This document shows positions 5,504 to 64,000 of a DNA stretch of 64,000 nt, piece after piece. How positions within the stretch are numbered: the stretch's first letter is position 1; the number at the start of each line of letters is the position of its first letter. A program made the translations under genes and the position numbers. Where the stretch lies: NCBI GenBank assembly GCA_965242595.1, contig OZ251464.1:2744982-2808981 (forward strand), read 5' to 3'. The notes beneath the pieces are model-generated. The model was not told the origin of the DNA. It did no database searches and saw nothing but the letters and a program-made list of their open reading frames with translations. This stretch comes from Alphaproteobacteria bacterium (GTDB taxonomy: Bacteria > Pseudomonadota > Alphaproteobacteria > SP197).

Positions 5504-6295
5504 CTAGCGGCCCTTGAACACCGGCTTGCGCTTTTCGGCGAAGGCGCGCGGGCCTTCCCTGGCATCTTCGCTGGCCAGCATGCGGGTATAGATCGGCAGC
5601 TGGCCGCTGCGCAGCTTGCGGAAGCAATCGGGGATGGAAAGGTGCATGCTGTGGCGCACCGCCTCCTTGGTGGCCTGCAACGCCAGCGGCCCGCCTTCGG
5701 CCAGGTGGCGGGCGGTGGCCCGCGCCCGTTCCATCAGCGCCTCCGGGGCCACGATCTCGTTCACCAGCCCCCAGCGCAGGGCCTCCTCCGCGCCCATGCG
5801 CCGCCCGGTCAGCAGGATGTCCATGGCGATGGAATGGGGCAGGCGGCGGGGCAGAATCTGGATGGCGCCGCCATCGGCGACGAAGCCGCGATGGACATCG
5901 GGCACGAAGAAGGTGGCGTGCGGCACGGCATATTGCAGATCGCAGGCCAGCGCGATCTCCCAGCCGCCGCCGACGGCATAGCCGTTCACGGCCGCGATCA
6001 CCGGCTTGTAGAGGTTCCACATTTCGGTGATACCGGCAAAGCCGCCATCCACCGCCTCCTCGCCGCCGCCATGTTCCTGGCTGGCCGCCGCTTCCTTCAG
6101 ATCCCAGCCGGGCGAGAAGAACTTGCCGCCCGCCCCGGTGACGATGCCCACCAGCAGCTCCGGATCGTCGCGCAGGGTGGCGAAGGCCCGCGACAGCCCG
6201 GCCGTCACCCGCCGTCCGATGGCGTTGGCGGGCGGGTTGTCGATGGTGATCTCGATCACGCGGCCCCGCCTTTCGGTCCTCACCGGCTCGCCCAT
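5504..6295 (-). CDS. Enoyl-CoA hydratase family (carnitinyl-CoA dehydratase-like)
   Basis: FSPGWDLK, KPVIAAVNGYAVGGG, EGPRAFAEKRKPVFKG. Confidence 0.88.
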   Translation of the reverse strand: MGEPVRTERRGRVIEITIDNPPANAIGRRVTAGLSRAFATLRDDPELLVGIVTGAGGKFFSPGWDLKEAAASQEHGGGEEAVDGGFAGITEMWNLYKPVIAAVNGYAVGGGWEIALACDLQYAVPHATFFVPDVHRGFVADGGAIQILPRRLPHSIAMDILLTGRRMGAEEALRWGLVNEIVAPEALMERARATARHLAEGGPLALQATKEAVRHSMHLSIPDCFRKLRSGQLPIYTRMLASEDAREGPRAFAEKRKPVFKGR

Positions 6296-6322
6296 GGCTT
6301 CCCTCCCCTTCGCGCCCGGCCC

Positions 6323-7075
6323 CTATAGCGCGGCGGAATCGCCGTCCTCAACCGCCGCCCGGCGGCGTTGCAGCGCCGCGATGCGCCTCGCCAGCAGCTC
6401 GCCCTGGATGCGGACCAGCAGCACGGCGACATAAAAGGCGAACAAGCCCACAGCCATGGTCAGCAGCGGCCACAGCATGGAGTCATGGATGGCGGGGCCG
6501 TCTGCGCGCAGCACGCTGGCGCCCTGATGCAGCGTGTTCCACCAATCCACCGAGAATTTGACCACCGGCAGGTTCACGGCCCCAACCACGGCCAGGATGG
6601 CGGCCGCGCGGGCGCCGCGCCAGCCTTCGTCGAAGGCCCGCGCCAGGGCCATATGGCCCAGATAGAGGAACAACAGCACCAGCACCGAGGTCAGCCTGGC
6701 ATCCCACACCCACCAGGTGCCCCAGCTGGGCTTGCCCCACAGGCTGCCGGTGATCAGCGCCACGGCGGTGAAACAGGCGCCGATGGGCGACGACGCGCGC
6801 GCGGCCAGATCGGCCAGCACATGCTTCCAGATCAGAAAGGCGGCAGAGAACGCCGCCATGACGGCATAGCACAGCAGCGCCATCCACGCCGCCGGCACAT
6901 GGACATACATGATGCGCGCGCTGTCGCCCTGCTGATAATCCGGCGGCGCGAAGGCCAGCCCCCAGACCAGGCCGCAGGCCAGCCCCAGCGCCGCCAGGGC
7001 GCCGGCCCAGGGCAGCAGGCAGGACGCCAGGCGCTGGAAACGGGCGGGGCTGGCAAGGCGGTGGAAGAAGGCCAC
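6323..7075 (-). CDS. ccmC: Heme exporter protein C
   Basis: IMYVHVPAAW, WGKPSWGTWWVWDARLT (WWD domain), WWNTLHQ; GTG start after AGGAG. Confidence 0.95.
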   Translation of the reverse strand: MAFFHRLASPARFQRLASCLLPWAGALAALGLACGLVWGLAFAPPDYQQGDSARIMYVHVPAAWMALLCYAVMAAFSAAFLIWKHVLADLAARASSPIGACFTAVALITGSLWGKPSWGTWWVWDARLTSVLVLLFLYLGHMALARAFDEGWRGARAAAILAVVGAVNLPVVKFSVDWWNTLHQGASVLRADGPAIHDSMLWPLLTMAVGLFAFYVAVLLVRIQGELLARRIAALQRRRAAVEDGDSAAL

Positions 7076-8551: not shown

Positions 8552-10129
8552 ATGGCCTGGGTGAAAACCGTCGCCGCCGCCAGGCTGGAGCGCGAAGGCC
8601 GCGCCGTTTTTCGCCTGGATGGGCGCCAGATCGCGCTGTTCGCCACGCCGGACGGCGTGTTCGCCTGCAACAATCGCTGCCCCCACCAGGGCTATCCCCT
8701 GAGCGAGGGCACGCTGGACCGGGCCTGCCAGCTGACCTGCAACTGGCACAATTGGCGCTTCGATCTGCGCAGCGGCGAAAACCAGCGCGACGGCGACAGG
8801 CTGCGCGTCTATCCGGTGCAGCTGCGGGCGGGCGATATCTGGGTGGAGATCGTCGATCCGCCGCCCCAGCGCCGCCGTCAGCGCATCCTGGCCGACCTGG
8901 CCCAGGGCTTTGCCGACCACGATTACGAACGCCTGGCCCGCGAACTGGCCCGCCTGCAACGCCTGGATGGCGAGGCCACCCTGGCCGTGAAGGAGGCGAT
9001 CCGCCGGTCGCACGACCGGCTGCAATTCGGCTGGACCCACGCCTTTGCCGGCGCCGCCGACTGGCTTGCCCTGCACGACAGGCACGAAGGCCGGGCGGAA
9101 AACCGGCTGATCTGTCTGCTGGAGGCCATCGGCCACATGGCCGAAGACAGCCTGCGCGAGGCGCCCTGGCCCTATGCCGAAGGCGCGGAGGCCTGGGATG
9201 CGGCCGCCTTCCTGGACGCCGTGGAGGCCCAGCAGGAAGAGCGCGCCATTCGCCTGACCCGGGGCGCGCTGGCGACGGGCGCTGGCTTTGCCACCATGGC
9301 GGATGCGCTGGGGCGGGCGGCGCTGGCCCATTACGCCGATTTCGGCCATGCCGCCATCTATGTCGTGAAGGCGGGCGAGCTGATCTCCCGCCTGGGCGAA
9401 GAGGTGGCCGAACCGCTGCTGCTGGCGCTGGTCCGGGGGCTGGTTGCCGCCTTTCGCGAGGATCTGATCCCCGAATTTCGCGGCTATCGCCCGGCGCTGG
9501 CCGCCTTCGGCGCCGGCGGCGCGGGCCCGGCCCCCGCGGGCGCGGCCTTTGCCGGCCTGGATGCCGGCAAGGCGCTGGCGCTGACATCGCGCCATGGCGG
9601 CGCCGCGCCGGATGCGCTTTTCCGCGCCCTGCTGGCCGCGAACGCCACCAACATGCTGGCCTTCGACCTCAGGCATCTGGACGATCTCGACCGGCCCTAT
9701 GGCAGCGATTTCGGCTGGCTGGACCTTACCCACGGCCTGACCTTCGCCGATGCGGTGTTGCAGCTGGCCAGGCGTCAGCCGGCGCTGTGGCCGGCCGGCC
9801 TGCTGCAGATGGCCTGCTTTGCCGGGCGCAACAGCGGCCACCAGGACGCGGCCATCGCCCTGGACGACTGGCGGGTGGCGGATGCCGACGCCTTCTTCGC
9901 CCGCGCCGAAGAGACGCTGTTCGACCACGGGCGCGACCGTTACATCGTCTCCGTGCATCTTTTGAAGACCATGCAGGCGGTGCGCCGTCTGCTGGCCGCG
10001 CCGGAGGCCGGCGAGGCCGGCGCCATCGCGCTGGCGGCCCTGAACCGGCTGCTGGCCTCGAAGCTGCCCTCCAAGGCGGTGCGGCGGACGGCCCGCCAGG
10101 CCATGCGCTTCGTCGCCGCCGACATGTGA
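8552..10129 (+). CDS. Rieske (2Fe-2S) domain protein with a long helical C-terminal region
   Basis: CPHQG...CNWHNW Rieske ligands within the first 100 aa; AGGAGG RBS. Confidence 0.8.
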   Translation: MAWVKTVAAARLEREGRAVFRLDGRQIALFATPDGVFACNNRCPHQGYPLSEGTLDRACQLTCNWHNWRFDLRSGENQRDGDRLRVYPVQLRAGDIWVEIVDPPPQRRRQRILADLAQGFADHDYERLARELARLQRLDGEATLAVKEAIRRSHDRLQFGWTHAFAGAADWLALHDRHEGRAENRLICLLEAIGHMAEDSLREAPWPYAEGAEAWDAAAFLDAVEAQQEERAIRLTRGALATGAGFATMADALGRAALAHYADFGHAAIYVVKAGELISRLGEEVAEPLLLALVRGLVAAFREDLIPEFRGYRPALAAFGAGGAGPAPAGAAFAGLDAGKALALTSRHGGAAPDALFRALLAANATNMLAFDLRHLDDLDRPYGSDFGWLDLTHGLTFADAVLQLARRQPALWPAGLLQMACFAGRNSGHQDAAIALDDWRVADADAFFARAEETLFDHGRDRYIVSVHLLKTMQAVRRLLAAPEAGEAGAIALAALNRLLASKLPSKAVRRTARQAMRFVAADM

Positions 10130-52701: not shown

Positions 52702-53676
52702 TTACTCTACGTCATCGGGAATCGTGCTTGCCCTTGTAAAATTCATGAACTTGCCGGATGAAATCCGCCGTGCGCGGCGGCGTTCGACGACACCAAGCGC
52801 GGCACGAATCTTTGGGCGGTCGAAATGCGGGTGGCTGAGCAACGCTCGAATTCCAGCAAGACTGGTTGGCTCACGCCAGATGGGCCAATCCAAGATGTGT
52901 GCACCAGCGGGTTCGCGACCTCCACCAAGGAGAGCAAGCCGCACCTCGCTGGCGCGATGCCTTGGAGCAACAGTCCATACGGAGAGGCCTATTGCGGCGA
53001 GTCTGTTAGCGCCGTGCTGTGTGGTTTCTTTGGTCTTTAGATCGGTTGGGTTTCTCGCACGCAACGCGTAGCGCACATCTTCATGAGGATCCCATCGGAA
53101 AGAGTCGGTTGCATCAGGTCGCTCCCAGGAAGCGAACAACGCCTCGCGCAAGCACTCCGTTTCGGAAATCTCCAACTTATTGCGACCGGAGCCTCGATTC
53201 GGTGGCGTTGCCTGCCGAGGAACCGAAGCAAGGCGTGAAAGAAAATGTTGATGACCCTGACCAAACATGAGGCAAAGCGGTGTCGGTTCAACCTTCTTGC
53301 CATCGCGGGTAATTGCAGCATCGCTAACAAGCGATGCCCACAAATCGGCATTGTATCGGTCCGAGTCAGCAGCACGCTGGAGTATATGTGTGGCCTCGCC
53401 GGGAGGTAAAGCCAAATCTGATCGCCCTTTGAAGCCGTGATGTTTGGCCAGAACTCCCAGCCCTTCAGCCGCAGCCTCGGTGATCTCATTCCCAGTTGCT
53501 TCTTTTGCAACATGCAGACGCGGGCGAAGAGGCGGTTCGTTCACTGTCCAAGACACACGCGGATGCCAGTCGGGGCGAGCCTTTTCGAGCGTGCGAAGCA
53601 GGCCCAACAAGGCCATGAAGGCCAGCAGGTTGTCGGGTTCCAGCCCATCGAGGCGGTGAGTTGCACAGGCAATCAC
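52702..53676 (-). CDS. Type I-G Cas8g (Csb3/Cas8u2-like) subunit
   Basis: HRLDGLEPDNLLAFMALLG, FGQGHQHFL, WDP, GANRLAAIG, WPIW; GTGA overlap with cas3. Confidence 0.8.
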   Translation of the reverse strand: MIACATHRLDGLEPDNLLAFMALLGLLRTLEKARPDWHPRVSWTVNEPPLRPRLHVAKEATGNEITEAAAEGLGVLAKHHGFKGRSDLALPPGEATHILQRAADSDRYNADLWASLVSDAAITRDGKKVEPTPLCLMFGQGHQHFLSRLASVPRQATPPNRGSGRNKLEISETECLREALFASWERPDATDSFRWDPHEDVRYALRARNPTDLKTKETTQHGANRLAAIGLSVWTVAPRHRASEVRLALLGGGREPAGAHILDWPIWREPTSLAGIRALLSHPHFDRPKIRAALGVVERRRARRISSGKFMNFTRASTIPDDVE

Positions 53677-56624
53677 GATACGCGTCCCACCTCCGAAGCC
53701 CGGTGATCGGCGAGGCGCAGAATCGCCTCCATATGGGCTAGGCCCCATATCCCGTAGCACCGTTTGAGGTCTTCGAACAAGGATGGCCAATCGGCACCAC
53801 GAAATTCGAAAGCCAAGGATTGCGGCCCCGGGCTTTCCGCTGCGATACGCCATTCCTTGACACCGAGGCATGACGGAAGCTGCCCCCGATCCGGTTCCGG
53901 ATCGAAAAACCCGAAAAACGGCCGTCCCAGGCCATGATGACTCCCAATCAGCCAAAGGACAAGTGCAGGATCGCGCGCATCTTTAAAGCGAGGATGTGCT
54001 GTCGCCATCCTCACGGAGAGCGCTTCGTGCCGCCAGCCTTCCGGTAGCCCAGCACGCTCTCCAGCACTGGGCGACCATGAGCGCCCGCTTTTGGCCAGAG
54101 GCGGACCTTCGGGGCGATTCCAGGAATCGCCGCCCGACAACATGATCTGGAAACGCGGATCGGCTTTGCCAGCGTCGTGGAGATAGGCTGCCAACTCAAG
54201 GTCGCTCGCGATACTGGCGTCAAGGTCGAGGGTTTGAGCGAAACGCTTGGCATAACAGGCAACTTGCCAGCTATGGTCTTCGAGGCTGACAGGTTCCCCG
54301 GAAGTGTGCGACATATCGTCGCTCTCGGTTGCAGGCGCAAAGACGTCCAATGTATGGGTGCCCTTGACTCCGTGCTTTGCAACGATAATCGCGCCTTTCT
54401 CACCACGCTCGTCGTAAGGAAAGCGAATGTTGTAACCCTTTTTGGCGCACTGCAACGCTTCCAACCCGTCTCGCAACGCCCATAGTGCCCGCCGGTGACC
54501 CTCCTCTTTCTCGAGTTTCGCCACATCCGTGGATGGCAAGATGTCGAGCAGTCGGTCAATCACGTCGATAGCATCGTCCTCGTCCTGGAGTATCTCTGAC
54601 GTGCGACTCCACAGAATGTCGTCTTGCACGAGACCGCGTGCAATCCGAACCGCGCAGCGCCGCCCCCAGAAAGGCTTCGCAGCATCGTCAGCAACATCCT
54701 CGACGGGGCTGCCAGAGTCGGGATTCCAGCCGTAGCGGTCGCAACCGCCGTATTCGACAGGAACGATCAGCATATCTCCCGGCCACAACTCATCCGGCCG
54801 CACGGGACCGGTATGGGCGTTATCTGCCCCAGCCCAACGGAACGCCGGCCGCCCATCTTTGCGGTTTGCGGCCAACCCCAACGTTTCGTCTTCGCGCTCG
54901 CGCTCAGGTGCATCGGACATAGCGTCAAGAGGTACCGAATCTCTCCGTGACTGGCGAAGCCATGCGCGCGCGGCCCATAGTGGGACATCGACCGCCTCGG
55001 AGGCGCGGGGTGGGACTAGTCGAAGCAATTCTTTGATCCCATCCCCTCGCTCGCTCTTCAAATCGTCTTGCGAAATATCGCCACGCCAGACAATGGAGAC
55101 TCCGGCGGTCGTCCGCTCGGCCCCGTGCAAGAACAGTCCGATGTCCGGATCGGCCGCCGGTCGAGGCGATGTCTGTGACCACAAGTCAAGATAGGCCGGC
55201 ATGATGACCGGAGCGTTCGAACGCTCCGCTGCGAGCGTATTTGGGTCGATGCCGGCCGCATTCAGGCGCTTTGGCAACGCCTCGACGCCAAAATCCACCG
55301 GGCCGTCTTTGGCAAGGTCCTGGAGTTTCTCCCAGGTTTTATGGATGCGGTCACCATAGACCGGATCGGTGGCCCTTTTGGCGATATCTTCAGGGCAGGC
55401 TAGGATCGTCCCTTCAGCAGAGAACGGCCGCCCGGCGCGATTCAGCCGGCCGAAACGCTGGCGGAGTGCATCGAGGGACGCGGCTTGGGTTACAAGGCCG
55501 TCGAGATCGAGATCGACTCCGACTTCCAGGCATTGGGTCGCGACGATGAACAGAGGCTGGGCTTGCGGTCGGTCTTTCGCGCCGGTTCGGAAGGGGTCGA
55601 GCTTTTTGGCGATCCTGTCGCGATCCACGTCGCGTGAGCGCCCGATCATTAACGTCGCATCGTTGGTATCGTCGTCTTTCAGAGCATCGAAGACGCTTCG
55701 CGCAAGAGCGACGCGGTTGACGACGACACCAACGGCGTGCGGTGAGACTCCTTTTTCCCGCAGCCGATCCGCCATTGTGCGGGCGGCTTTGGCGAAGGCT
55801 TCCGCGACGGCCGCGGACGTTCCGCGCACCACTTTCAATACGGCAGGCTTACGAGCTTCGAGACGCTTTCTCAATATGGGATGGGCACGATCTGCTAGTG
55901 AAAGCTCAAAGGGTCGTTTCGCTTCTTCTCCCGGAGTGGCTGACAGGAGTGCCATGCGCACCCCGGCTCCCCCAGTGCATTGTGCAGCGGTAAGCGTTTG
56001 CCGGAACGGTTCGGACAGATGCGCCTCGTCCAGGAGGATCAGGCTGTCGGTGCCAAGCAGGCCGGCATGGATGGGCTTCATGCGGTCCGATACGCCATAT
56101 CCGCGAAACAACAACCTCGAACCGATCTGATCGACGGTGGAGCAGAGAATCGTCGGCTGCGTAGGTGTGCGCGCCCAATCGTCTTCCAGCGGCGCTCCGC
56201 CGCGAAGCCGCTGGACGATGAGCGGTGGCGCATCATCGCCTGCCAGTCGGCACAGCCGGGAGGCCACTTCCTTGACGACCTCATGTCCTTGCGTACCGGC
56301 ACACAAAGAATGGCGAAGTTTCTTGCTGATCTTGCTGGCTCGATCAAGGGCGTCGTCCACCACGAGACGACGATCCACGACAAGCGCAATCCGCAGCGCG
56401 GCCCTCCGTAGCAGGTCTCTTCCCGGTTTATCTGCGCACAGCGCCAAGTGGAATATGGCCACGTCCATCGCCGCCGTCTTCCCTGTGCCGGTCGGCAGAT
56501 CCAGCACGTCCGGCCACCGGCCGCGTTCAGCGAGGTGGTCCACCAGGGCTTGCTGCCAGGGAAATGGGGCTTGGTCATGGATACCACAGAAGAAGTCGTG
56601 GAAATCGGCGGGGTGAAGTTGCAT
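53673..56624 (-). CDS. cas3: Type I-G Cas3 (helicase with C-terminal HD nuclease)
   Basis: PFPWQ, LPTGTGKT, VVDRR, LDEAHL, QRFGRLNR, then LHDAGKAD, RHE, SHHG, LRLAD. Confidence 0.95.
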   Translation of the reverse strand: MQLHPADFHDFFCGIHDQAPFPWQQALVDHLAERGRWPDVLDLPTGTGKTAAMDVAIFHLALCADKPGRDLLRRAALRIALVVDRRLVVDDALDRASKISKKLRHSLCAGTQGHEVVKEVASRLCRLAGDDAPPLIVQRLRGGAPLEDDWARTPTQPTILCSTVDQIGSRLLFRGYGVSDRMKPIHAGLLGTDSLILLDEAHLSEPFRQTLTAAQCTGGAGVRMALLSATPGEEAKRPFELSLADRAHPILRKRLEARKPAVLKVVRGTSAAVAEAFAKAARTMADRLREKGVSPHAVGVVVNRVALARSVFDALKDDDTNDATLMIGRSRDVDRDRIAKKLDPFRTGAKDRPQAQPLFIVATQCLEVGVDLDLDGLVTQAASLDALRQRFGRLNRAGRPFSAEGTILACPEDIAKRATDPVYGDRIHKTWEKLQDLAKDGPVDFGVEALPKRLNAAGIDPNTLAAERSNAPVIMPAYLDLWSQTSPRPAADPDIGLFLHGAERTTAGVSIVWRGDISQDDLKSERGDGIKELLRLVPPRASEAVDVPLWAARAWLRQSRRDSVPLDAMSDAPEREREDETLGLAANRKDGRPAFRWAGADNAHTGPVRPDELWPGDMLIVPVEYGGCDRYGWNPDSGSPVEDVADDAAKPFWGRRCAVRIARGLVQDDILWSRTSEILQDEDDAIDVIDRLLDILPSTDVAKLEKEEGHRRALWALRDGLEALQCAKKGYNIRFPYDERGEKGAIIVAKHGVKGTHTLDVFAPATESDDMSHTSGEPVSLEDHSWQVACYAKRFAQTLDLDASIASDLELAAYLHDAGKADPRFQIMLSGGDSWNRPEGPPLAKSGRSWSPSAGERAGLPEGWRHEALSVRMATAHPRFKDARDPALVLWLIGSHHGLGRPFFGFFDPEPDRGQLPSCLGVKEWRIAAESPGPQSLAFEFRGADWPSLFEDLKRCYGIWGLAHMEAILRLADHRASEVGRVS

Positions 56625-56626
56625 GG

Positions 56627-58072
56627 TCAACGCTCCATGCTGCGACAGAGGCCGAGACCCGTGAACCGGCCGGCACCGAGGAGAACGGGACCGGGCACCT
56701 CGTGTTCGAAGTCGATGACCGCGTGAACCAGTTGCCGACTCGCCAGCGATTTCGGCACTTTCCAGCGAGTCCACGGCGGCTCGCCTGCCAAGGGGCGGGC
56801 GGGCGGCATGCCTTCGACTGCCGAATGTTTGCCAACCCGAACCCGATTTGGATCTGGGCGCGGCAGCCCGGCGTTTTCGCACGCGCCTACAATAAGCTCC
56901 CGTATTTCGGCGTCGTCCCGCCGCTTCAGATGCCGATCAAGCACGATTGGCGTGGAGCTAGCCCAGATACGCGACGGTTTCAGATAGTATCTGGGCGAAA
57001 GAGAGCGCTTCTGTCCTCCGTCGCCCGGAACGGGCGCGAGGCATAGCGGCCCGTTCAGCGGGGGACCCTGTAGCGTCAGGATGCGCCGCTCCTCATCCCG
57101 ACTGTAGCGCGCCACGTTTTCGAACGCTGCACGGAAACCTTCGATTCGATCAAAGGCCATCCCGCGTGGTGGAACCAGGGCAAATCCCAGGACGCGCCCA
57201 TCGGCGTGGGGAAAGCCGGCAAAAGCCAATGGCACAATCGCGAGATGCGGGAGCCGGGTCGGCGCGCCGTTCGGGGTGTGGCCGGAAACGACCTCAGGTA
57301 TGGCGCTTTCCAGATCCGCTTTCCGGTAGCCGCTCATCAAGGCGTTTCGTAGCACACGGCAAACGAGGGCTGCCGCTCGGACATCCGGAACCTCGCCCCT
57401 GATCGCTTCCAGCACCAGCCAGCCATCGCCCGGCGGTGCCGAATCCGGCGGCCGTTCAGTGAAGCTAGGTGCGCCGGGGCGGATCGTCGGCCGGATGGGA
57501 TTTACGCGGTGGGCTTCCTCCAACTCACGCAAACGCCCCGGATAGACGTAGCGGCGCGCCGATTTGGCTGAATGTCGATATGCCGGAGCAACGACCGACA
57601 GGAAGCGGCAGCGGGCCAGGCTCGCCGAATGGCCAAGATACCCGACGCAACCAGCAAGTGAATTTAGTGCGTTGAACACTGCGGGATTTGGTTCTGACGG
57701 CCAAGTCAGGGCCACGAGTGGATCGTCTGGGCGAGTGATGGGGAAACGGCGCGGCTGGCGCGGGCGCATATCCGGCATCACTTTCAGATACGTCTCCACT
57801 GTCTTCGACGCCCTTGGATCATTCGGTGGCACAAACACGACAGGTGTTGTCCTGGGAGTATGGTCGCTCGCGTAAATAGTCGGCGATGGCTGTTCTTCCA
57901 GCCATTCGAGCGCCGCCCGCTCTTCAGGCCGTTCGCCCCGAACCGCCCAGGAGGAAACGAGTGCGGAGAATATTCTGTCGGGTTGTGGTGGCCAGTCGGG
58001 GGTGTCATCGCTGGGTTCGTGCGCGGCGCGACAAGCACCGGTTAGGAATTCAATTTCAAGAACGAGGGCCAT
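56627..58072 (-). CDS. csb2: Type I-G Csb2 (Cas5-Cas6 fusion)
   Basis: WPPQPDRIFSALV, YLGHSAS, WASSTPIVL, GPVLLGAGRFTGLGLC. Confidence 0.9.
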   Translation of the reverse strand: MALVLEIEFLTGACRAAHEPSDDTPDWPPQPDRIFSALVSSWAVRGERPEERAALEWLEEQPSPTIYASDHTPRTTPVVFVPPNDPRASKTVETYLKVMPDMRPRQPRRFPITRPDDPLVALTWPSEPNPAVFNALNSLAGCVGYLGHSASLARCRFLSVVAPAYRHSAKSARRYVYPGRLRELEEAHRVNPIRPTIRPGAPSFTERPPDSAPPGDGWLVLEAIRGEVPDVRAAALVCRVLRNALMSGYRKADLESAIPEVVSGHTPNGAPTRLPHLAIVPLAFAGFPHADGRVLGFALVPPRGMAFDRIEGFRAAFENVARYSRDEERRILTLQGPPLNGPLCLAPVPGDGGQKRSLSPRYYLKPSRIWASSTPIVLDRHLKRRDDAEIRELIVGACENAGLPRPDPNRVRVGKHSAVEGMPPARPLAGEPPWTRWKVPKSLASRQLVHAVIDFEHEVPGPVLLGAGRFTGLGLCRSMER

Positions 58073-59312
58073 CGTCACTCTCGTCTTCCCCGCCTTGACC
58101 TTCCAGCGCCAGTTGACGGCTGCGACGTATGATCTCTATTAGCTTGTCTTGCGGCTTGAGAGTGAGCGATCTGAACTGGAAGCCCGCCGCTTCGGCCTGC
58201 GCGTAGGCTTCACGATAGAGTGTTCGCGCTGCAGCGCGATCAAGCTCAAGAGGCGTCGTTGAGCCGTCAGTGCGAACCAGCTCAAGCGGCGCGGTCCCGT
58301 CGCAAACCAGATCGCAACGCGAGCGCAGCGCATAACCGCGTGCATCCTGTTCGGTCAGCGCCAGGAGGCCGAGCGACGCGATTAGTGCGCGCCCAGCGGC
58401 GTTTCGCGCATTATCGCCGAAACGTAATCTCCTGATTCCCGCCAGCGTAATCGTCGCACGATGCTCCACATGGTCGCAGGTAACACCGAGAGGAGCGACG
58501 GTGGGAGCGATGTTGCTGTGATTTATTTCGGAAGGGCGGACCTTCTTCGCAGCTTTTCCGACCTCATTCTTGTCCATGCTCCAATCGGAAGCAGAAGCAC
58601 CTTTGAAAACTTCTACTTTTCGGAGAATGCCGAGCGGGTCGATTCTGCTTCCCGTGCGTCGGCCAGCAGTTCGGGCTTCCATTTCGCCGGTGCGTTGGTT
58701 GACAACGATTCCCTCGACTGGCGTGTCAATGCCCATGATTTCGGAAACAAGCGCACGCGGAAATTTCGCACCAAGACCGCCACCTTCACCCTGGCTGTGC
58801 CATGCGCCAAACAGCAGGGCCGCGGGCGACAACTCCAACAGTATGGTCGCATCAGCAGGCTTGGCCGCCGCAAGGCGACGGCCTTCCTCGCTTTGCATGA
58901 AGGAGTGATTGTTCAGAAGGCTATCACGCAGTATGGCGTCGTAGATGCGGTGAGGCGCCTCCAGCGACGTGATACGCTCCAACGGCTCCAATCCGGCGCC
59001 GCTGAAGTTCACCGTGACGTAGGGCAGCGGGGGCGGTCCAGCGCTGCCTTCTTCATCGGCAGCCATCAGCAACGCCTCCTCCAGGCGGTTGGCCTGACTC
59101 TGGACACTGTCAATCAGAACACACCAGATCTCCTTGCCTTCCACTCGGCGCTGCTCGAACACATGGCGCGGGTGACCGCCGCGGCGTTCAGAAGGATATG
59201 TCGGCGGAAAAATCTTGTCGCCCTGGCCGCCGACCGGCTGAAGCCGCTGAATACGACGGAATGCGGCGGCCTCATCGACGGCCCTGTTCAAGATTTGCAG
59301 ATCGATCATCAT
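58056..59312 (-). CDS. csb1: Type I-G Cas7 (Csb1)
   Basis: LQPVGG...IFPPTY, IDSVQSQANRLE, PHRIYDA, LLFGAWHS, LRSRCDL; GGAGGG RBS. Confidence 0.92.
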   Translation of the reverse strand: MMIDLQILNRAVDEAAAFRRIQRLQPVGGQGDKIFPPTYPSERRGGHPRHVFEQRRVEGKEIWCVLIDSVQSQANRLEEALLMAADEEGSAGPPPLPYVTVNFSGAGLEPLERITSLEAPHRIYDAILRDSLLNNHSFMQSEEGRRLAAAKPADATILLELSPAALLFGAWHSQGEGGGLGAKFPRALVSEIMGIDTPVEGIVVNQRTGEMEARTAGRRTGSRIDPLGILRKVEVFKGASASDWSMDKNEVGKAAKKVRPSEINHSNIAPTVAPLGVTCDHVEHRATITLAGIRRLRFGDNARNAAGRALIASLGLLALTEQDARGYALRSRCDLVCDGTAPLELVRTDGSTTPLELDRAAARTLYREAYAQAEAAGFQFRSLTLKPQDKLIEIIRRSRQLALEGQGGEDESDDGPRS

Positions 59313-59460
59313 GTCCGGTCCCTCCAGTCGGAACTCAATACCATGCCCTGTAAGGCGACGGCAAGCGGTGGCGCTATGGCGTGGCCCCAGGTAGTCCACA
59401 TCCATGTCGACCGTGAAGCTCCCCTGCGGCCGGCGATGTCGAGTGCCTTTTCATACCTCG

Positions 59461-59673
59461 TCAAGGGGTTGTGATCCGCCGGGGCAGCGACGCCCCTGAG
59501 GCGCGGGCCAGAAGCCACAGCGCCATGACGGCCGTTTTGTCGAGACCGGTTGAGGTATCCACGGCTGCGGGGGGCTTGCCTTGCGACAGATACTCGTCGA
59601 ACAGCCGGCGCTGCCACGGGAAGGGTGGATGCCCGGTGAGCGCCTGAAAGTCGGAGGCGAAGCTCGCCGTCAC
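59461..59673 (-). pseudogene. cas3: Truncated N-terminus of a second type I-G cas3
   Basis: FQALTGHPPFPWQRRLF...VDTSTGLDKTAVMALWLLA...LPRR then stop; decayed Walker A. Confidence 0.8.
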
Positions 59674-59719: not shown

Positions 59720-60199
59720 TCATGCCGGTTCCAGTGTATCCTGCTTTCGGCGCCCGAGCCAAGACCTAGACCCGTGGCTGCGGCTGCGCGAGGAGACTTT
59801 GGGCACCTCCGGGCGCCGCTCACTGCTTTTCCCGGGGCGGATCAAGCGGCCGTGCCGACGGGCGGTGGCAGCTTGGTTCGGCTTGATGCGATGGAAGGTG
59901 ACGAGAAGGGTCTCGCGCCGGTCGGCCGTGCGTTTGACGACGGCGCGCCACCACTTGCCTCGGTCAAGTTCCATCACACATGTCAGGGTGCGGTCTTTCT
60001 CCAGAATCGCCGTCCCGCCATCCAGCACCTGCTGCAAGCGGGCATAGTCGGCGGGTGTGACATCCGGGTGGCGTGCTGCCTGCTTGGCAGCCGTTTGTCG
60101 GGACAGGCGCACGAATCGTGAGCGCCCACCCAGCTGGGTCAGGAGCAGGTCGTCGAGTTCGGCCACGATGTCATTCGGGGGCAAGGGTTGATCCGGCAT
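59720..60199 (-). CDS. Stand-alone BECR-fold (phage PBECR-like) putative RNase
   Basis: VRLSRQTAAKQAARHPDVTPADY...WWRAVVKRT...LLVTFHR pattern, resembling toxin tips of phage MuF proteins; family call by eye. Confidence 0.6.
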   Translation of the reverse strand: MPDQPLPPNDIVAELDDLLLTQLGGRSRFVRLSRQTAAKQAARHPDVTPADYARLQQVLDGGTAILEKDRTLTCVMELDRGKWWRAVVKRTADRRETLLVTFHRIKPNQAATARRHGRLIRPGKSSERRPEVPKVSSRSRSHGSRSWLGRRKQDTLEPA

Positions 60200-60248
60200 T
60201 GTCTGGCCTTGGACATGAGAGGCTCCAATGCCATACTCCAAGGTAGGC

Positions 60249-60254
60249 TGTCAA
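60249..60254 (-). promoter_or_regulatory. -35 box of the putative BECR/cas effector operon promoter
   Basis: Perfect TTGACA on the minus strand 50 bp upstream of ATG 60199, within the inverted repeat TAGGCT-N8-AGCCTA; -10 box unclear. Confidence 0.6.
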
Positions 60255-60258
60255 CCTA

Positions 60259-60277
60259 GCCTATGGCGGCACACAAA
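60259..60277 (-). promoter_or_regulatory. Partial protospacer plus TTT PAM for the mini-array spacer
   Basis: Minus strand TTT-GTGTGCCGCCATAGGC vs spacer GTGTGGCGCCACAGGC: 14/16, mismatches at 6 and 12. Confidence 0.85.
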
Positions 60278-60339
60278 AAATTTGTGGACATACTGCTCAT
60301 ATGGTCGAATATAGCGCAGGATTGCCGAAGGGGCAGCCT

Positions 60340-60448
60340 CTCCCTCATGCCATCTGCGTGGGGCTTCATTGAAGGGTGTGGCGCCACAGGCACCGAACGG
60401 CACAATGCCGGAATTTCCGGGGCATAACCGCCCCGGCCTCTTTGGGTT
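60340..60448 (+). ncRNA. crRNA-like regulatory RNA: degenerate repeat (60340-60375), 37-nt spacer (60376-60412), degenerate repeat (60413-60448)
   Basis: Repeat 2 ATTTCCGGGGCATAACCGCCCCGGCCTCTTTGGGTT is 27/36 identical to the array repeat; repeat 1 ends GGCTTCATTGAAGG and keeps a hairpin. Confidence 0.85.
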
Positions 60449-61078
60449 TCTGTGGCAGGCGCCTGTGGTGTCGGTGCGGATGGGTGGACTCGCGCCCCCT
60501 TCACGCCCCGCCCCGCGGCCGGCGATGTCGGAGGCGTCTTCCCGGCCAAGGCGGCCATGGTTCGCCGGGCGCTGCGGGCAGTGAGCGGGCGAGCGCCAAG
60601 CCGATGCGCCAATTCGAGGCGCCGCCCCACCTTCCGCCGCGAGCGGAACGCCGGACAGGCGCCGCCGCCCGCCCGTTCGAGCGCGAAGCAGGGGCCATCC
60701 CAGCCCTGGCAGGCTCGTGACGGCGCAGCGCCTGTGGTTCCCATCGCCGCCGCGGTCGCGCATGGGGAAGATCGACAGGCCGTCCAGTTTCCCCCGGCGT
60801 TGGGCAACCTGCGCGGCCTCATGGCCCAGGCTTCGGCCTCTCCTCGTCGCGGCGCCCCGGCCTTGTCTCGTGGCAACGCCATGTTGTCCAGGGCGCGGCC
60901 GCGCAAGGCGGTGTCCTGGTTCAGGGCATGGGAGGCGGCGGGTTTCGGGTCTTCGGCCCGACGCCGGCAGGACGCTAACGCATCCAGGGGGCGATTGCGA
61001 ATCCCATGACGCTCCGCTGGGCGTTGCGCTTTACGTCTCGCCAAACCGGGCCGTGCACTGGGGCGTTGCCGCAGCGTT

Positions 61079-61107
61079 TGGACATTGTGCCGGACATTCA
61101 AGATACT
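61079..61107 (+). promoter_or_regulatory. Putative promoter of cas4/cas1-cas2
   Basis: TGGACA-17 bp-GATACT upstream of ATG 61145. Confidence 0.45.
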
Positions 61108-61144
61108 CTGCCCGTTGGGTTTCGGTAGCAGCAGGGACCGTTCC

Positions 61145-62872
61145 ATGACCCAGCTTGAGCTTCATCTTCCCGCGCCGCCGGCCACCGGCGAGTCGCCGCT
61201 GGTGCCGGCGCGCATGGTGAACGAATTCGTCTATTGCCCGCGGCTGGCCTATCTGATGTGGGGGCAGGCCGAATGGGCGGAGACCGCCGACACCGTGGAC
61301 GGCCGGCGCATCCACGGCCGGGTCGATCGTCCGGGAAAGCCGCTGCCCGGGCCGCAGGCACTGGAGGGCGGCGACGAAGACGAGAAGACCGTCAGCCGTT
61401 CGCTTACGCTTTCTTCCGAGCGGCTGGGCGTGATCGCGAAGATCGACATCGCCGAGGCCAAAGACGGGCTGGTGACGCCCATCGATTACAAACGGGGCAA
61501 GCGCCCCCATGTGGCGCGCGGCGCCTATGAGCCGGAGCGCGTTCAGGTCTGCCTTCAGGCACTGCTGCTGGAGGAACACGGATATCGGGTGGAGGAGGGC
61601 GCGATCTGGTATGCGGAGAGCCGCGAGCGCGTGCGCATAGACCTGGACGACGAACTGCGTCTGGCGGCCCGGGAAGCGGTGAGCCGCCTGCGTATGACCG
61701 TGGCCCACGGCCGGATTCCGCCGCCGCTGAAGGACAGCCCCAAATGCCCCCGCTGCGCCCTGGTTTCCATCTGCCTGCCCGACGAGATGGGCGCGCTGGG
61801 CGGTTCCGGCCTGGCGCCACGCCCTATCGCTGTAAGCCGCGACGAGGCGCTGCCGCTGGTGGTGCAGTCGCAGCGGGCGCGCCTGGCCAAGGAGGGGGAG
61901 ACGCTGAAGATTATCGACGAAGAGCAGGGCGATACCAGGGTGCGCCTGATCGATGTTTCCGATGTTGCGATCTTCGGCAATGTCTCGCTGACCGCGCCGG
62001 CGCTGGCCACCCTTATGGAACGCGAGATACCGGTTGCCTTTCACAGCCATGGCGGCTGGTTTCGCGGCATGACCCATGGCACAGGCCATCGCAATGTCGA
62101 GATTCGCACGGCGCAATACCGGGCGAGCTTCGACGACGGATTCTGCCTGCGCTTTGCCCGCGACCTGGTGGCTGCCAAGATCGTCAACCAGCGAACCATC
62201 CTGCGGCGCAATTGGCGAGGCGAGGAGGATGAGCGCAAGGCGGTGCTGGCGCGGCTGAGTGCGGCGCGCAAATCGGCGCCTGGGGCCGCGGGCATGAGCG
62301 AGCTTATGGGCCTGGAGGGCGATGCGGCGGCGAGCTATTTTCGCGCCTTTTCCGGGCTGCTGGCACCGCCCGGCGGTGGCGGGGAGGGGGACGGAATCGC
62401 GCCCTTTCGCTTCGACGTCCGCAACCGCCGACCGCCGACCGACCCGGTGAACGCCATGCTGTCGCTGGCCTACGCCATGCTGACGCGCCATCTGACGGTG
62501 GCGCTGGCCACCGTCGGCCTCGACCCCTATCGCGGCTTCTTTCACGCTCCGCGCTATGGCCGCCCGGCGCTGGCCCTCGACATCATGGAGCCGTTTCGCC
62601 CGCTGATCGCCGATTCCGTGGTGCTTTCGGCGGTGAACACCGGCGAGGTGGCGGCGGGCGATTTCATCGTCGCCCCCACAGGCACGGCGCTGACCGCCCC
62701 CGGGCGCCGCCGCTTCGTTGCCGCCTTCGAGCGCCGGCTGTCGCAGGAGACCACCCATCCCCTGTTCGGTTACCGGCTCAGCATGCGCCGCCTGCTGATC
62801 ATGCAGGCCAGACTGCTGGGCCGCCACCTTCTGGGAGAGCTTGCGAGCTACCCCCATTACCTGCCGCGGTGA
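61145..62872 (+). CDS. cas1: Cas4-Cas1 fusion
   Basis: Cas4: YCPRL, IDYKRG, CPRCALVSIC. Cas1: GLEGDAA, NRRPPTDPVNAMLS, GLDPYRGFFH, LALDIMEPFR. Confidence 0.96.
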   Translation: MTQLELHLPAPPATGESPLVPARMVNEFVYCPRLAYLMWGQAEWAETADTVDGRRIHGRVDRPGKPLPGPQALEGGDEDEKTVSRSLTLSSERLGVIAKIDIAEAKDGLVTPIDYKRGKRPHVARGAYEPERVQVCLQALLLEEHGYRVEEGAIWYAESRERVRIDLDDELRLAAREAVSRLRMTVAHGRIPPPLKDSPKCPRCALVSICLPDEMGALGGSGLAPRPIAVSRDEALPLVVQSQRARLAKEGETLKIIDEEQGDTRVRLIDVSDVAIFGNVSLTAPALATLMEREIPVAFHSHGGWFRGMTHGTGHRNVEIRTAQYRASFDDGFCLRFARDLVAAKIVNQRTILRRNWRGEEDERKAVLARLSAARKSAPGAAGMSELMGLEGDAAASYFRAFSGLLAPPGGGGEGDGIAPFRFDVRNRRPPTDPVNAMLSLAYAMLTRHLTVALATVGLDPYRGFFHAPRYGRPALALDIMEPFRPLIADSVVLSAVNTGEVAAGDFIVAPTGTALTAPGRRRFVAAFERRLSQETTHPLFGYRLSMRRLLIMQARLLGRHLLGELASYPHYLPR

Positions 62873-62885
62873 GGCCCACAGCGCC

Positions 62886-63179
62886 ATGAGCGACGAACGC
62901 ACCTATATCGTGACCTACGACATCGCCGACAGCCGGCGCTGGCGGCGCGTCTTCAAGATCATGAACGGATTCGGCGAGTGGCTACAGCTTTCGGTGTTCC
63001 AGTGCCGCCTGTCGCGGCGGCGGCGCGCCGAGCTGGAAAGCCGGCTGCGAGAGATCGTCAAGGCAGGCGAGGATCACGTCCTGCTGATCGACATCGGGCC
63101 GGCGGAGCGGACGAAGCTGGCGGTCGAGAGCATCGGCAAGACTTTTGCAGGTATCGAAAGGCAGGCGGTTGTGGTATAA
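62886..63179 (+). CDS. cas2: CRISPR-associated Cas2
   Basis: YIVTYDIAD...GFGEWLQLSVFQC. Confidence 0.96.
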   Translation: MSDERTYIVTYDIADSRRWRRVFKIMNGFGEWLQLSVFQCRLSRRRRAELESRLREIVKAGEDHVLLIDIGPAERTKLAVESIGKTFAGIERQAVVV

Positions 63180-63398
63180 TGACCCAAGCTGCCCGATTCC
63201 GCCGGACGACCGCGAGCGCCCCCGTGGCGCACGAGGACCGAAGGGCGCTCGAATCCGGGCAAGGCATTGATATTGTTGGGTTTTTGACATGGTAAGGAAG
63301 ATGACAGCAGCATTCTCGCCCGGATATGCGGATGAAGGGCGAGGGTGCTCGAAAGCCGATGGAATTCACCTTGGCGCATGGCAGGTTACGCGATAGGG
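63180..63398 (+). promoter_or_regulatory. CRISPR leader with an IHF-consensus site
   Basis: Non-coding stretch between cas2 and repeat 1; minus strand TATCAATGCCTTG (63260-63272) fits WATCAANNNNTTR; CGAGCGC/GCGCTCG inverted motifs. Confidence 0.75.
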
Positions 63399-64000
63399 CC
63401 TTCCGGGGCATAAAAGCCCCGGCCTCATTGAAGCGCTTCTCGACCAGCTCGGCTCCTGGCTGTCGCAGGCCTTCCGGGGCATAAAAGCGGCCTCATTGAA
63501 GCCGCCCCTTCGGGATCTTCCGTCAGCTTTGTGAACAGCCTTCCGGGGCATAAAAGCCCCGGCCTCATTGAAGCACGCCGTCGCCTCCACCAACCACGTC
63601 GGCAGGGGCTCCTTCCGGGGCATAAAAGCCCCGGCCTCATTGAAGCCACACCGATTGCCGCCAAGCCATTATGATTGCTAGCAACCTTCCGGGGCATAAA
63701 AGCCCCGGCCTCATTGAAGCTATCGGAAAGACCTAATCGTTTCTGCATTTCAGCGTCCCTTCCGGGGCATAAAAGCCCCGGCCTCATTGAAGCCGCCCCT
63801 TCGGGATCTTCCGTCAGCTTTGTGAACAGCCTTCCGGGGCATAAAAGCCCCGGCCTCATTGAAGCACGCCGTCGCCTCCACCAACCACGTCGGCAGGGGC
63901 TCCTTCCGGGGCATAAAAGCCCCGGCCTCATTGAAGCCACACCGATTGCCGCCAAGCCATTATGATTGCTAGCAACCTTCCGGGGCATAAAAGCCCCGGC
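63399..64000 (+). CRISPR. Type I-G CRISPR array, repeat CCTTCCGGGGCATAAAAGCCCCGGCCTCATTGAAGC, 9 repeats (last cut by the window end), 8 spacers of 35-38 bp
   Basis: Repeats start at 63399, 63470 (33-bp variant), 63539, 63611, 63685, 63758, 63830, 63902, 63976. Confidence 0.99.

Follow-up and report, generated by a model that had tools for sequence, protein, structure and literature searches.

An apparent solo MuF-C/PBECR domain at the head of type I-G cas operons as a possible Cascade-repressed toxin

The resistance of cas loci to being lost, and their way of punishing an anti-CRISPR attack, are explained by CRISPR-repressed toxins. The only protein example that we found described so far is CrePA of the Acinetobacter baylyi type I-F system, in which the protein toxin CreP, which has a KilA-C domain, is repressed by the CreA RNA together with Cascade (Shu et al., bioRxiv 10.1101/2024.01.05.574328). 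Its gene lies between cas3 and csy1 and is repressed through 19 nucleotides (nt) of CreA (bioRxiv 10.1101/2024.01.05.574328; review PMC12737573). Mini-arrays of the CreR kind (types I-B, I-E and V-A) carry a spacer that partially matches a cas-gene promoter, implying autorepression, and are described as generally not coupled to a toxin gene (review PMC12737573). Shmakov et al. predicted mini-arrays directed against cas promoters or cargo toxin–antitoxin (TA) genes broadly, and type I-G appears in the text of their paper only in a table, with 235 loci of which 4% have a mini-array (PMC10120712). Here we describe a type I-G locus within a 64,000-nt stretch of an alphaproteobacterial genome (contig OZ251464.1, positions 2,744,982 to 2,808,981; hereafter the window), in which an open reading frame (ORF) of 159 residues, ORF159, stands between a divergent mini-array and the remains of a cas3 gene. 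ORF159 apparently encodes a solo copy of a domain found at the C terminus of phage MuF proteins, and we tentatively read it, at a little short of an even chance, as a CrePA-like toxin, that is, a predicted RNase that would be held silent by Cascade together with an RNA resembling a CRISPR RNA (crRNA).

The concept of a protein toxin with a crRNA-like antitoxin has already been published with CrePA; new here, if the locus works in this way, would be the type I-G setting, the PBECR domain and the position as first cistron of a cas3 operon. The term 'I-G' does not occur in the text of the CreTA/CreR review (PMC12737573), the CrePA preprint or a preprint on phage crRNA-like RNAs (word search of the texts), and word searches of the texts likewise found no 'MuF' in the last of these and no 'CRISPR' in a preprint on BECR classification (bioRxiv 10.64898/2026.08.28.747851). 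The locus resembles CrePA in that a psiR-psiS-psiR mini-array adjoins a small gene, the first ~17–19 spacer nucleotides match a site at the promoter of that gene that is flanked by a protospacer-adjacent motif (PAM), and the gene, which has no protein antitoxin and lies just upstream of effector genes, carries a solo copy of a domain otherwise fused in phages. It differs in subtype (I-G instead of I-F), in product (a predicted RNase-like BECR/PBECR domain, whereas CreP is a KilA-C protein that blocks cell division) and in layout, in that cas3 comes directly after ORF159 and the targeted promoter appears to serve both ORF159 and the cas operon. Because no KilA family appeared in any of the Pfam scans and the predicted fold is BECR-like, sequence and model indicate an analogue of CreP and not a member of the CreP protein family. 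With CreR the locus shares a mini-array spacer that partially matches a cas-operon promoter; it differs from CreR in that a non-cas gene, ORF159, is the first cistron. The features on which the comparison turns are as follows.

59720..60199, minus strand: ORF159, 159 residues (ATG at 60199, stop codon at 59720-59722)
59834..60175, minus strand: solo MuF-C/PBECR-like domain, residues ~9-122 of ORF159 (from the alignment, the structure model, fold matches and MuF fusions)
Within that domain: putative catalytic set S33, T36, K39, Q40 and H44 (helix), K89 and T91, and T101, H103 and R104 (last core strand)
60249..60254, minus strand: -35-like TTGACA box of the ORF159 promoter, abutting the protospacer-like site, with ORF159 as the first gene behind it
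60257..60277, minus strand: protospacer-like target matched by the spacer (site 60274->60257; 5' PAM TTT at 60277-60275)
60339..60448, plus strand: divergent mini-array, CreA/CreR-like (psiR1 60339-60375, spacer 60376-60411, psiR2 60412-60448)
59744..59818, minus strand: near-invariant element of ~71 nt with an 8-nt inverted repeat at its ends, between the ORF159 domain and the cas3 start

An earlier reading of the letters, to which we refer as the sequence-only reading, had placed behind the targeted promoter a 159-residue gene that is not a cas gene and that carries a K-Q-x-x-R-H-P...Y...VVK...TFHR pattern, and had seen no neighbouring immunity ORF. Both observations hold. The translation of ORF159, which lies behind the TTGACA box and would reach 173 residues from an upstream TTG at 60241, contains AAKQAARHP, DYARLQ, AVVKRT and LVTFHR in this order. 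A word-indexed search returned 16 homologues with 54–85% identity over the first ~120 residues, together with one alternative-frame ORF call. The alignment of the 17 sequences (A1) has 17 invariant columns, including S33, T36, Q40, H44, E67, K89, T91, H103 and R104. The GC content at the three codon positions of the domain is 0.72/0.47/0.76, and the ratio of non-synonymous to synonymous substitution rates (dN/dS) is 0.11–0.40 in pairwise comparisons among the I-G-linked copies, namely those of the window and of three loci on alphaproteobacterial chromosomes that are metagenome-assembled genomes (MAGs; loci L001–L003). Because it has homologues and is under purifying selection, ORF159 is, on this sequence evidence, a real gene, and a chance ORF was ruled out.

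Conservation in A1 is limited to residues ~9–122, and the last ~37 residues of the window's ORF159 are a frame-shifted read-through. In 11 of the 17 aligned proteins the C terminus is a conserved ...GGAQSLL..P.PRV tail, encoded by the same DNA in another frame than that of the window; the L001 homologue stops earlier, and the homologue P0016 uses the third frame. Another call, P0020, was considered as a longer, fused close relative and taken as an artefact of ORF calling, as it runs from an upstream 'gene X' through the mini-array into the ORF159 homologue; no other fused close relative turned up. ORF159 is single-copy in its 2.82-Mb genome, and matches occur in 4 of 33 genomes of the window's own order, its own genome included; two of the other matches, looked at closely, are MuF remnants. 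The Pfam scan gave nothing at threshold (the sole match was Agenet, E 0.14) and the NCBIfam and PADLOC scans gave no match. Searched with tblastn, 50,697 GenBank phage records yielded nothing at E<=1e-3, and a peptide-pattern scan of metagenome contigs from the Joint Genome Institute (JGI) gave 39 pattern matches with no relative among them. No conserved small ORF that could serve as an immunity gene was found on either side: the antisense ORFs are not kept intact in L001, and ORF159 is flanked by the promoter and mini-array on one side and by the 71-nt element and cas3 on the other. A type II TA pair was ruled out, there being no antitoxin ORF.

The fold of ORF159 is BECR-like, as judged from an AlphaFold2 model built from the ORF159 alignment, with a mean predicted local distance difference test (pLDDT) score of 81 and values >90 over residues ~11–120. 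The model consists of a strand (residues 29–33), helices 34–43 and 49–61, and strands 63–66, 71–79, 82–90 and 97–105; its topology, two helices followed by a four-stranded sheet, fits the BECR core of one or more helices and a four-stranded antiparallel sheet. In a comparison with ~48,000 solved chains by VIA-align, seven rows lead the list: BrnT at the top (Z 7.3, 77/77 residues, root-mean-square deviation 3.0), one TA entry from Salmonella, four contact-dependent inhibition (CDI) toxin-immunity entries and colicin D. RelE, MqsR, YafQ and YoeB come after them. BrnT is also the best Foldseek match in the Protein Data Bank (PDB), with E 7e-3, and a profile search of PDB sequences gave a single, chance-level match (E 0.72). 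Among the predicted viral structures of BFVD, 11 match the model at E<=1e-3 (best 8e-7), and the named rows at this threshold include a minor capsid protein and proteins labelled 'Nuclease' or 'MuF C-terminal domain-containing'; phage proteins of the polyvalent ADP-ribosyltransferase kind follow at weaker E values. A feature search of the ESM Atlas returned PBECR3/PBECR2 clusters for 27 of 30 matches (score 0.90, 180–183 shared features). The BECR-like fold proposed by the sequence-only reading is thus supported by the model and its matches, among which colicin D and RelE appear in the VIA-align rows, MuF-C in BFVD and PBECR in the ESM Atlas. Type II toxins of the BrnT/RelE kind are the best solved structural matches and, like ORF159, are small alpha+beta proteins of the same fold class; they differ from it in that ORF159 has no adjacent antitoxin gene, shows 8–14% sequence identity to them and has another set of conserved residues.

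For the ORF159 family, the decisive link is homology in sequence to the MuF C-terminal domain. A 400-residue protein whose gene adjoins Portal_Mu (locus L004) has Phage_Mu_F at residues 56–186 and an ORF159-like domain at its C terminus, where ~110 residues are 46% identical to ORF159; L004 and L005 are two identical loci in one Rhodospirillales MAG. A profile search of 1.84 billion cluster representatives found 1103 proteins at E<=1e-3, of which 365 reach E<=1e-10. Nine of the ten long homologues scanned carry an N-terminal Phage_Mu_F, one of them with an ADP-ribosyltransferase (ART) domain as well, and in the tenth the ORF159-like domain directly follows a pre-toxin PT-TG domain. In PHROGs, ORF159 weakly matches the C-terminal end of phrog_220, 'minor head protein and DNA pilot' (E 0.034). 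The C-terminal domain of Mu F, 'MuF-C', has been described as a phage BECR (PBECR) domain and predicted RNase, and its describers consider mRNAs or CRISPR RNAs, and not tRNA or rRNA, as possible targets of PBECR domains (Iyer et al. 2017, PMC5512222). ORF159 shares homologous sequence and the same predicted fold with these domains; it differs from them in standing alone on a chromosome, within a cas operon and under apparent crRNA-like control instead of in a virion gene cluster, and in escaping the current Pfam PBECR/MuF_C models at threshold. Pfam MuF_C matches 1 of the 17 A1 members, weakly (E 0.043), and even phage Mu gp30, at 21 bits, stays below the model's cut-off of 27.6. In a tree of 156 domain sequences, the 17 close homologues and six other short proteins form one clade (support 0.999) with a sister group that includes MuF-fused proteins; because the solo clade is monophyletic with such a sister group, the tree suggests a single capture event. 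A congeneric genome (L014, G025:C3) holds at 6159-6659 a truncated, frame-shifted MuF 3' fragment, from about residue 243 to the end and including the PBECR-like domain, which lies right against the final repeat of a type I-E CRISPR array and runs in the array's direction; it probably remains from a prophage, and its adjacency to the array is striking.

The active-site pattern of BECR enzymes comprises a His in the N-terminal (pre-alpha) helix and a Ser/Thr or a colicin-like His in the last core strand (PMC5512222; bioRxiv 10.64898/2026.08.28.747851), and the 2026 classification preprint places a second catalytic His of colicin-like members on the last strand (bioRxiv 10.64898/2026.08.28.747851). 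ORF159 shows this pattern in its sequence, with H44 at the helix end and T101-x-H103-R104 on the last core strand. Across 163 profile-aligned family members, S33, T36, K39, Q40, H44, K89, T91, T/S101, H/R103 and R/K104 are strongly conserved, in the short and the N-terminally extended forms alike; H44 is a His in 78/87, 29/31 and 40/41 sequences of three architecture groups, and is invariant in A1. ORF159 is apparently a solo MuF-C/PBECR domain of the active type, as far as sequence and model go, and we infer RNase activity from this, which for this family would be that of a metal-independent endoribonuclease.

The sequence-only reading had also taken the promoter of ORF159 to be the target of a crRNA-like RNA, and the relatives strengthen this view. 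The 3' end of psiR1 reads CATTGAAGG, like the ...CATTGAAGC of the CRISPR repeat; psiR2 is 73% identical to the repeat with its hairpin intact, and contains a weak Rfam match to CRISPR-DR16 (60417-60444). The mini-array, with a spacer of 36 nt in the window, is conserved in L001–L003 and in a metagenome contig, L023. In the window, the first 16 nt of the spacer are identical to the ORF159 sense-strand site except at positions 6 and 12, and 14 of the 15 non-sixth positions among positions 1–18 pair. Across the five lineages (window, L001, L002, L003 and L023), 14–15 of these 15 positions pair, with mismatches at positions 6, 12 and often 18. Pairing that skips each sixth position is known to mark binding by type I Cascade. 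In each 411-nt region (401 nt in L023), the only other site at that score is the spacer itself. Spacer and target co-vary: positions 1–5 read GTGTG, ATGTA, ACGCA and AGGTA in the window, L001, L002 and L003, with the target matching each, and in L023 the spacer has AGGTA against ATGTA in the target, a single mismatch. The PAMs are TTT in the window, TTC in L001, L002 and L003, and TTG in L023, all valid under the TTN reported for type I-G (PMC9638904). A TTGAC/TTGAT box is kept in all five lineages, starting at protospacer position 21–23, and is followed by TATGAT at 17 nt in L003 and by TAGAAT at 16 nt in L023. Repression of the ORF159 promoter by Cascade is strongly suggested by these sequences. 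On the plus strand, sigma-70-like matches number two against 0.1 expected: TGGACA-16-CATACT at 60210-60237, inside the 5' end of ORF159 and pointing toward the mini-array, and TGGACA-17-GATACT at 61079-61107, just ahead of the likely cas4/cas1 start.

The surrounding locus is type I-G, as the sequence-only reading had it, with Csb1/Cas7g, Csb2, Cas3g and Cas4g/Cas1g recognised by NCBIfam and Pfam; a Csx17/Cas8g gene was not seen among the window ORFs scanned. Its genes in the window are as follows.

52702-53955, minus strand: 'Cas3-extension' protein
53673-56882, minus strand: Cas3g (NCBIfam/Pfam)
56627-58078, minus strand: Csb2 (NCBIfam/Pfam)
58056-59405, minus strand: Csb1/Cas7g (NCBIfam/Pfam)
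59473..59661, minus strand: type I-G cas3 5' fragment, left over from the original operon as a pseudogene (matches only positions 2-69 of NCBIfam TIGR02621, E 3.2e-16)
61085-62872, plus strand: Cas4g/Cas1g (NCBIfam/Pfam)
62841-63179, plus strand: putative Cas2 ORF, 82-88% identical to the gene after cas4/cas1 in relatives
63398, plus strand: start of the CRISPR array

In L001–L003, the ORF159 homologue lies directly upstream of a full-length cas3g, with csb1 and csb2 further down; cas4/cas1-cas2 are divergent on the other side in L001 and L003, 82–85% identical to those of the window, and cas4/cas1 was not found within the 6-kb flank of L002. Four mutually alike metagenome contigs (L023–L026), found with a DNA pattern from the 71-nt element among the JGI contigs, have the same layout with an ORF159 homologue of only 54% identity. 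In all these loci, cas3 follows within ~150 nt of the ORF159 homologue, the targeted promoter type precedes the homologue and then cas3, and ORF159 and the cas genes presumably form one transcription unit. The position of ORF159 is constant in at least five lineages with near-saturated synonymous sites, and in L001–L003 and L023–L026 the crRNA-like spacer, as in CreR, would target a cas-operon promoter, given co-transcription. In the window itself, ORF159 is directly followed not by an intact cas gene but by the cas3 5' fragment, and the operon continues into a csb1-csb2-cas3 set. Because the fragment is 62–72% identical to the N terminus of full-length cas3 in L001–L003 and the window's csb1, csb2 and cas3 are only ~28–31% identical to the relatives' genes, the sequences indicate that the effector module behind ORF159 was replaced by a distant I-G set. 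The proposal that the RNase and the cas genes stand together behind one promoter is supported for the relatives, where the same promoter precedes cas3, and needs amending for the window, where only the 5' fragment of that cas3 remains and the effector set is another one.

In another family of the class, a related I-G locus (L029; G079:C1:2378000-2394000) shows the gene in decay. At positions 9090-9290 the ORF159 homologue is a remnant of ~20 codons with TFHR changed, and the mini-array has lost its spacer, psiR1 and the target, leaving only a psiR2-like hairpin next to a TTGAC box that is kept; cas3, which aligns in one piece over 984 residues, csb1, csb2, cas4/cas1 and cas2 are still detectable. 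Because the gene decayed while cas3 stayed intact, ORF159 is, by this comparison, an accessory gene; a core Cas subunit was ruled out on the same ground, and no such gene occurs in the described I-G effector. The joint decay of the gene with its guide and target is what a toxin/antidote pair would predict, and may be taken as a hint to that effect from a single case.

These comparisons bear on a simpler account, in which the mini-array does no more than autoregulate the cas genes in the manner of CreR and ORF159 is phage cargo that came to lie behind a regulated promoter, without a CRISPR function. CreR-type mini-arrays at cas promoters are widespread in type I (PMC10120712; PMC12737573), I-G loci tolerate cargo genes, TA pairs included (PMC9638904), the variable 'gene X' adjoins the mini-array in L001 and has left a remnant in the window, and ORF159 has been lost in G079. 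The purifying selection on the I-G-linked copies, the invariance of the catalytic-type residues in the 17 A1 sequences, the same position in lineages that have diverged so far and the survival of ORF159 through the effector swap of the window speak against it, and we consider it quite unlikely. A third account is that of a self-encoded inhibitor, in which the captured PBECR domain degrades crRNA or the crRNA-like repressor and so forms a feedback loop or switch that kills no cell. In its favour are the origin of the domain in phage head proteins believed to be injected together with the DNA, the suggestion of CRISPR RNAs as targets of some PBECR domains (PMC5512222) and the place of ORF159 directly beside the crRNA-like gene; the relatives carry arrays of 21–27 repeats adjoining the ORF159 homologue, which do not suggest a chronically inhibited system, and we hold this account to be very improbable.

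The near-invariant element downstream of the domain (about 6370-6440 in L001–L003, 2707-2777 in L023 and 9021-9089 in L029) is conserved far above the flanking genes in all loci (alignment A4). It is 97% identical in L023–L026, where the adjoining protein is 54% identical, and ~90% identical in G079 despite the decayed homologue; because it persists without ORF159, it is assigned, from these alignments, to the cas3 5' region. The frame-shifted tail of the window's ORF159 reads across it. The Rfam scan found no family over the element, its predicted fold is no better than that of shuffled sequences (z 0.08), and its few substitutions lend no support to inner hairpins. It is single-copy in its genome, was detected in two genomes, the window's own included, out of 401 sampled from the class, and its DNA pattern was not found in viral contigs.

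The element enters the account that we rank next after the CrePA-like one, and which we regard as possible though on balance unlikely, namely that ORF159 is a non-lethal accessory RNase, co-regulated with the cas genes, that acts on a specific RNA and does not poison the cell; candidate substrates would be invader transcripts, the operon's own mRNA at the 71-nt element, or crRNA-like RNAs. Such an enzyme would be made whenever Cas proteins are made, as the gene presumably shares a transcription unit with cas3 in all loci of known context; the sequence constancy of the element immediately downstream, set against the divergence of the protein, calls for a sequence-specific reader; Iyer et al. 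name mRNAs and CRISPR RNAs as possible PBECR targets (PMC5512222); and a non-lethal RNase fits the lack of an immunity gene. The element is nevertheless independent of the protein in G079, its fold is no more stable than that of shuffles, its substitutions leave the inner hairpins unsupported, and I-G systems work without such a gene (PMC9638904).

The CrePA-like reading, by comparison, would connect the domain, the guide and the promoter in one mechanism. The C-terminal PBECR domain of a Mu-type phage minor-head protein would, after a single capture, have become fixed at the head of a type I-G cas3 operon as its first cistron, and the divergently transcribed mini-array would yield a crRNA-like RNA that, with Cascade, targets the sigma-70-type promoter of ORF159. 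The complex would pair with ~17 bp of the TTN-flanked site, at positions 1–5, 7–11 and 13–17 with each sixth base unpaired, too short a match to license Cas3 cleavage, and would occlude the adjacent -35 box, repressing ORF159 and the downstream cas genes. If the cell lost Cascade, or if Cascade were titrated or an anti-CRISPR blocked it, the promoter would fire and yield more Cas protein together with a burst of RNase, which would slow or stop growth and so cause abortive infection or addiction, analogous to CrePA. Within this scheme, Cascade-dependent repression, RNase activity and toxicity are the parts that we infer. That the product may be a toxin is supported by its origin in phage-conflict proteins (virion-borne MuF fusions, the PT-TG toxin architecture and the ART co-fusion), by catalytic-type residues retained under selection, by the lack of an immunity gene and by the close precedent of CrePA.

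Several points weigh against the CrePA-like reading. The most direct is that ORF159 shares its promoter with cas genes, and autoregulation always makes some protein; continuous low-level synthesis of this kind sits badly with a potent toxin lacking an antitoxin protein. The fold evidence has its own limits: Foldseek found no match in the PDB at E<=1e-3, and the VIA-align Z of ~7 is moderate and within the tool's range for models without a clear match, the result being informative nonetheless because entries of a single kind fill the top ranks. Nor was any of the Pfam PBECR1-5 and MuF_C models matched at threshold, and an hhalign comparison of alignment A3 with Mu gp30 aligned residues 46–119 with 349–428, the segment where Pfam places MuF_C, at E 0.0067 and a probability of only 5.7%. 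Iyer et al. hold phage Mu's own MuF-C copy to be inactive (PMC5512222), and for this reason the fold alone does not imply catalysis. In the window, the -10 box is poor and the swapped Cascade will not necessarily load the mini-array RNA, and the co-decay in G079 is one case only.

The same evidence admits a fourth, unlikely arrangement, in which one Cascade-guarded promoter forms a combined dead-man switch that joins the logic of CreR, acting on Cas levels, with that of CreP, acting through a PBECR RNase, and has the 71-nt element as its third part. An anti-CRISPR that disables Cascade would then trigger more Cas protein and an RNase burst at once, and the element could be a cis cleavage or binding site of the RNase, or an RNA antidote, gating cas3.

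Further features of the locus were noted in passing. Variable cargo sits between cas4/cas1 and the mini-array in L001, consisting of a 194-residue ORF and the ~457-residue 'gene X' (L001 3731-5655); gene X has no Pfam or PADLOC match, its C terminus looks helix-turn-helix-like by eye, and the window retains only a decayed remnant of that C terminus at ~60500-60760 on the minus strand. In the CRISPR array of the window (63398-64000), an exact 222-nt duplication (63488-63709 equal to 63779-64000) repeats a three-spacer block, and the repeat at 63469-63505 carries a small deletion. A 31-nt direct repeat of 81% identity (59422-59452 and 60511-60541) lies on both sides of the stretch that holds mini-array, promoter, ORF159 and cas3 fragment; it was considered as the flank of a cassette and set aside, as the alignment leaves a core of ~20 nt that may be due to chance.

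If the CrePA-like reading is correct, a second, unrelated phage domain would have been captured in type I-G in the way the KilA-C domain was in type I-F, which would make the capture of solo domains as Cascade-guarded switches a recurring process and would add an RNase-type effector to the CRISPR-repressed toxins. The dead-man switch, if true, would show an enzymatic protein toxin under CRISPR repression for the first time, would be the first such module in type I-G, and would assign a first cellular role to the MuF-C/PBECR domain. ORF159 would provide a tractable, stand-alone member of this large, uncharacterised MuF-C/PBECR family of 1103 cluster representatives, and the 71-nt element is a separate lead on the control of cas3. 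The five co-varying spacer–promoter pairs, with a mismatch at every sixth position, constitute compact natural evidence for regulatory, non-cleaving binding by I-G Cascade.

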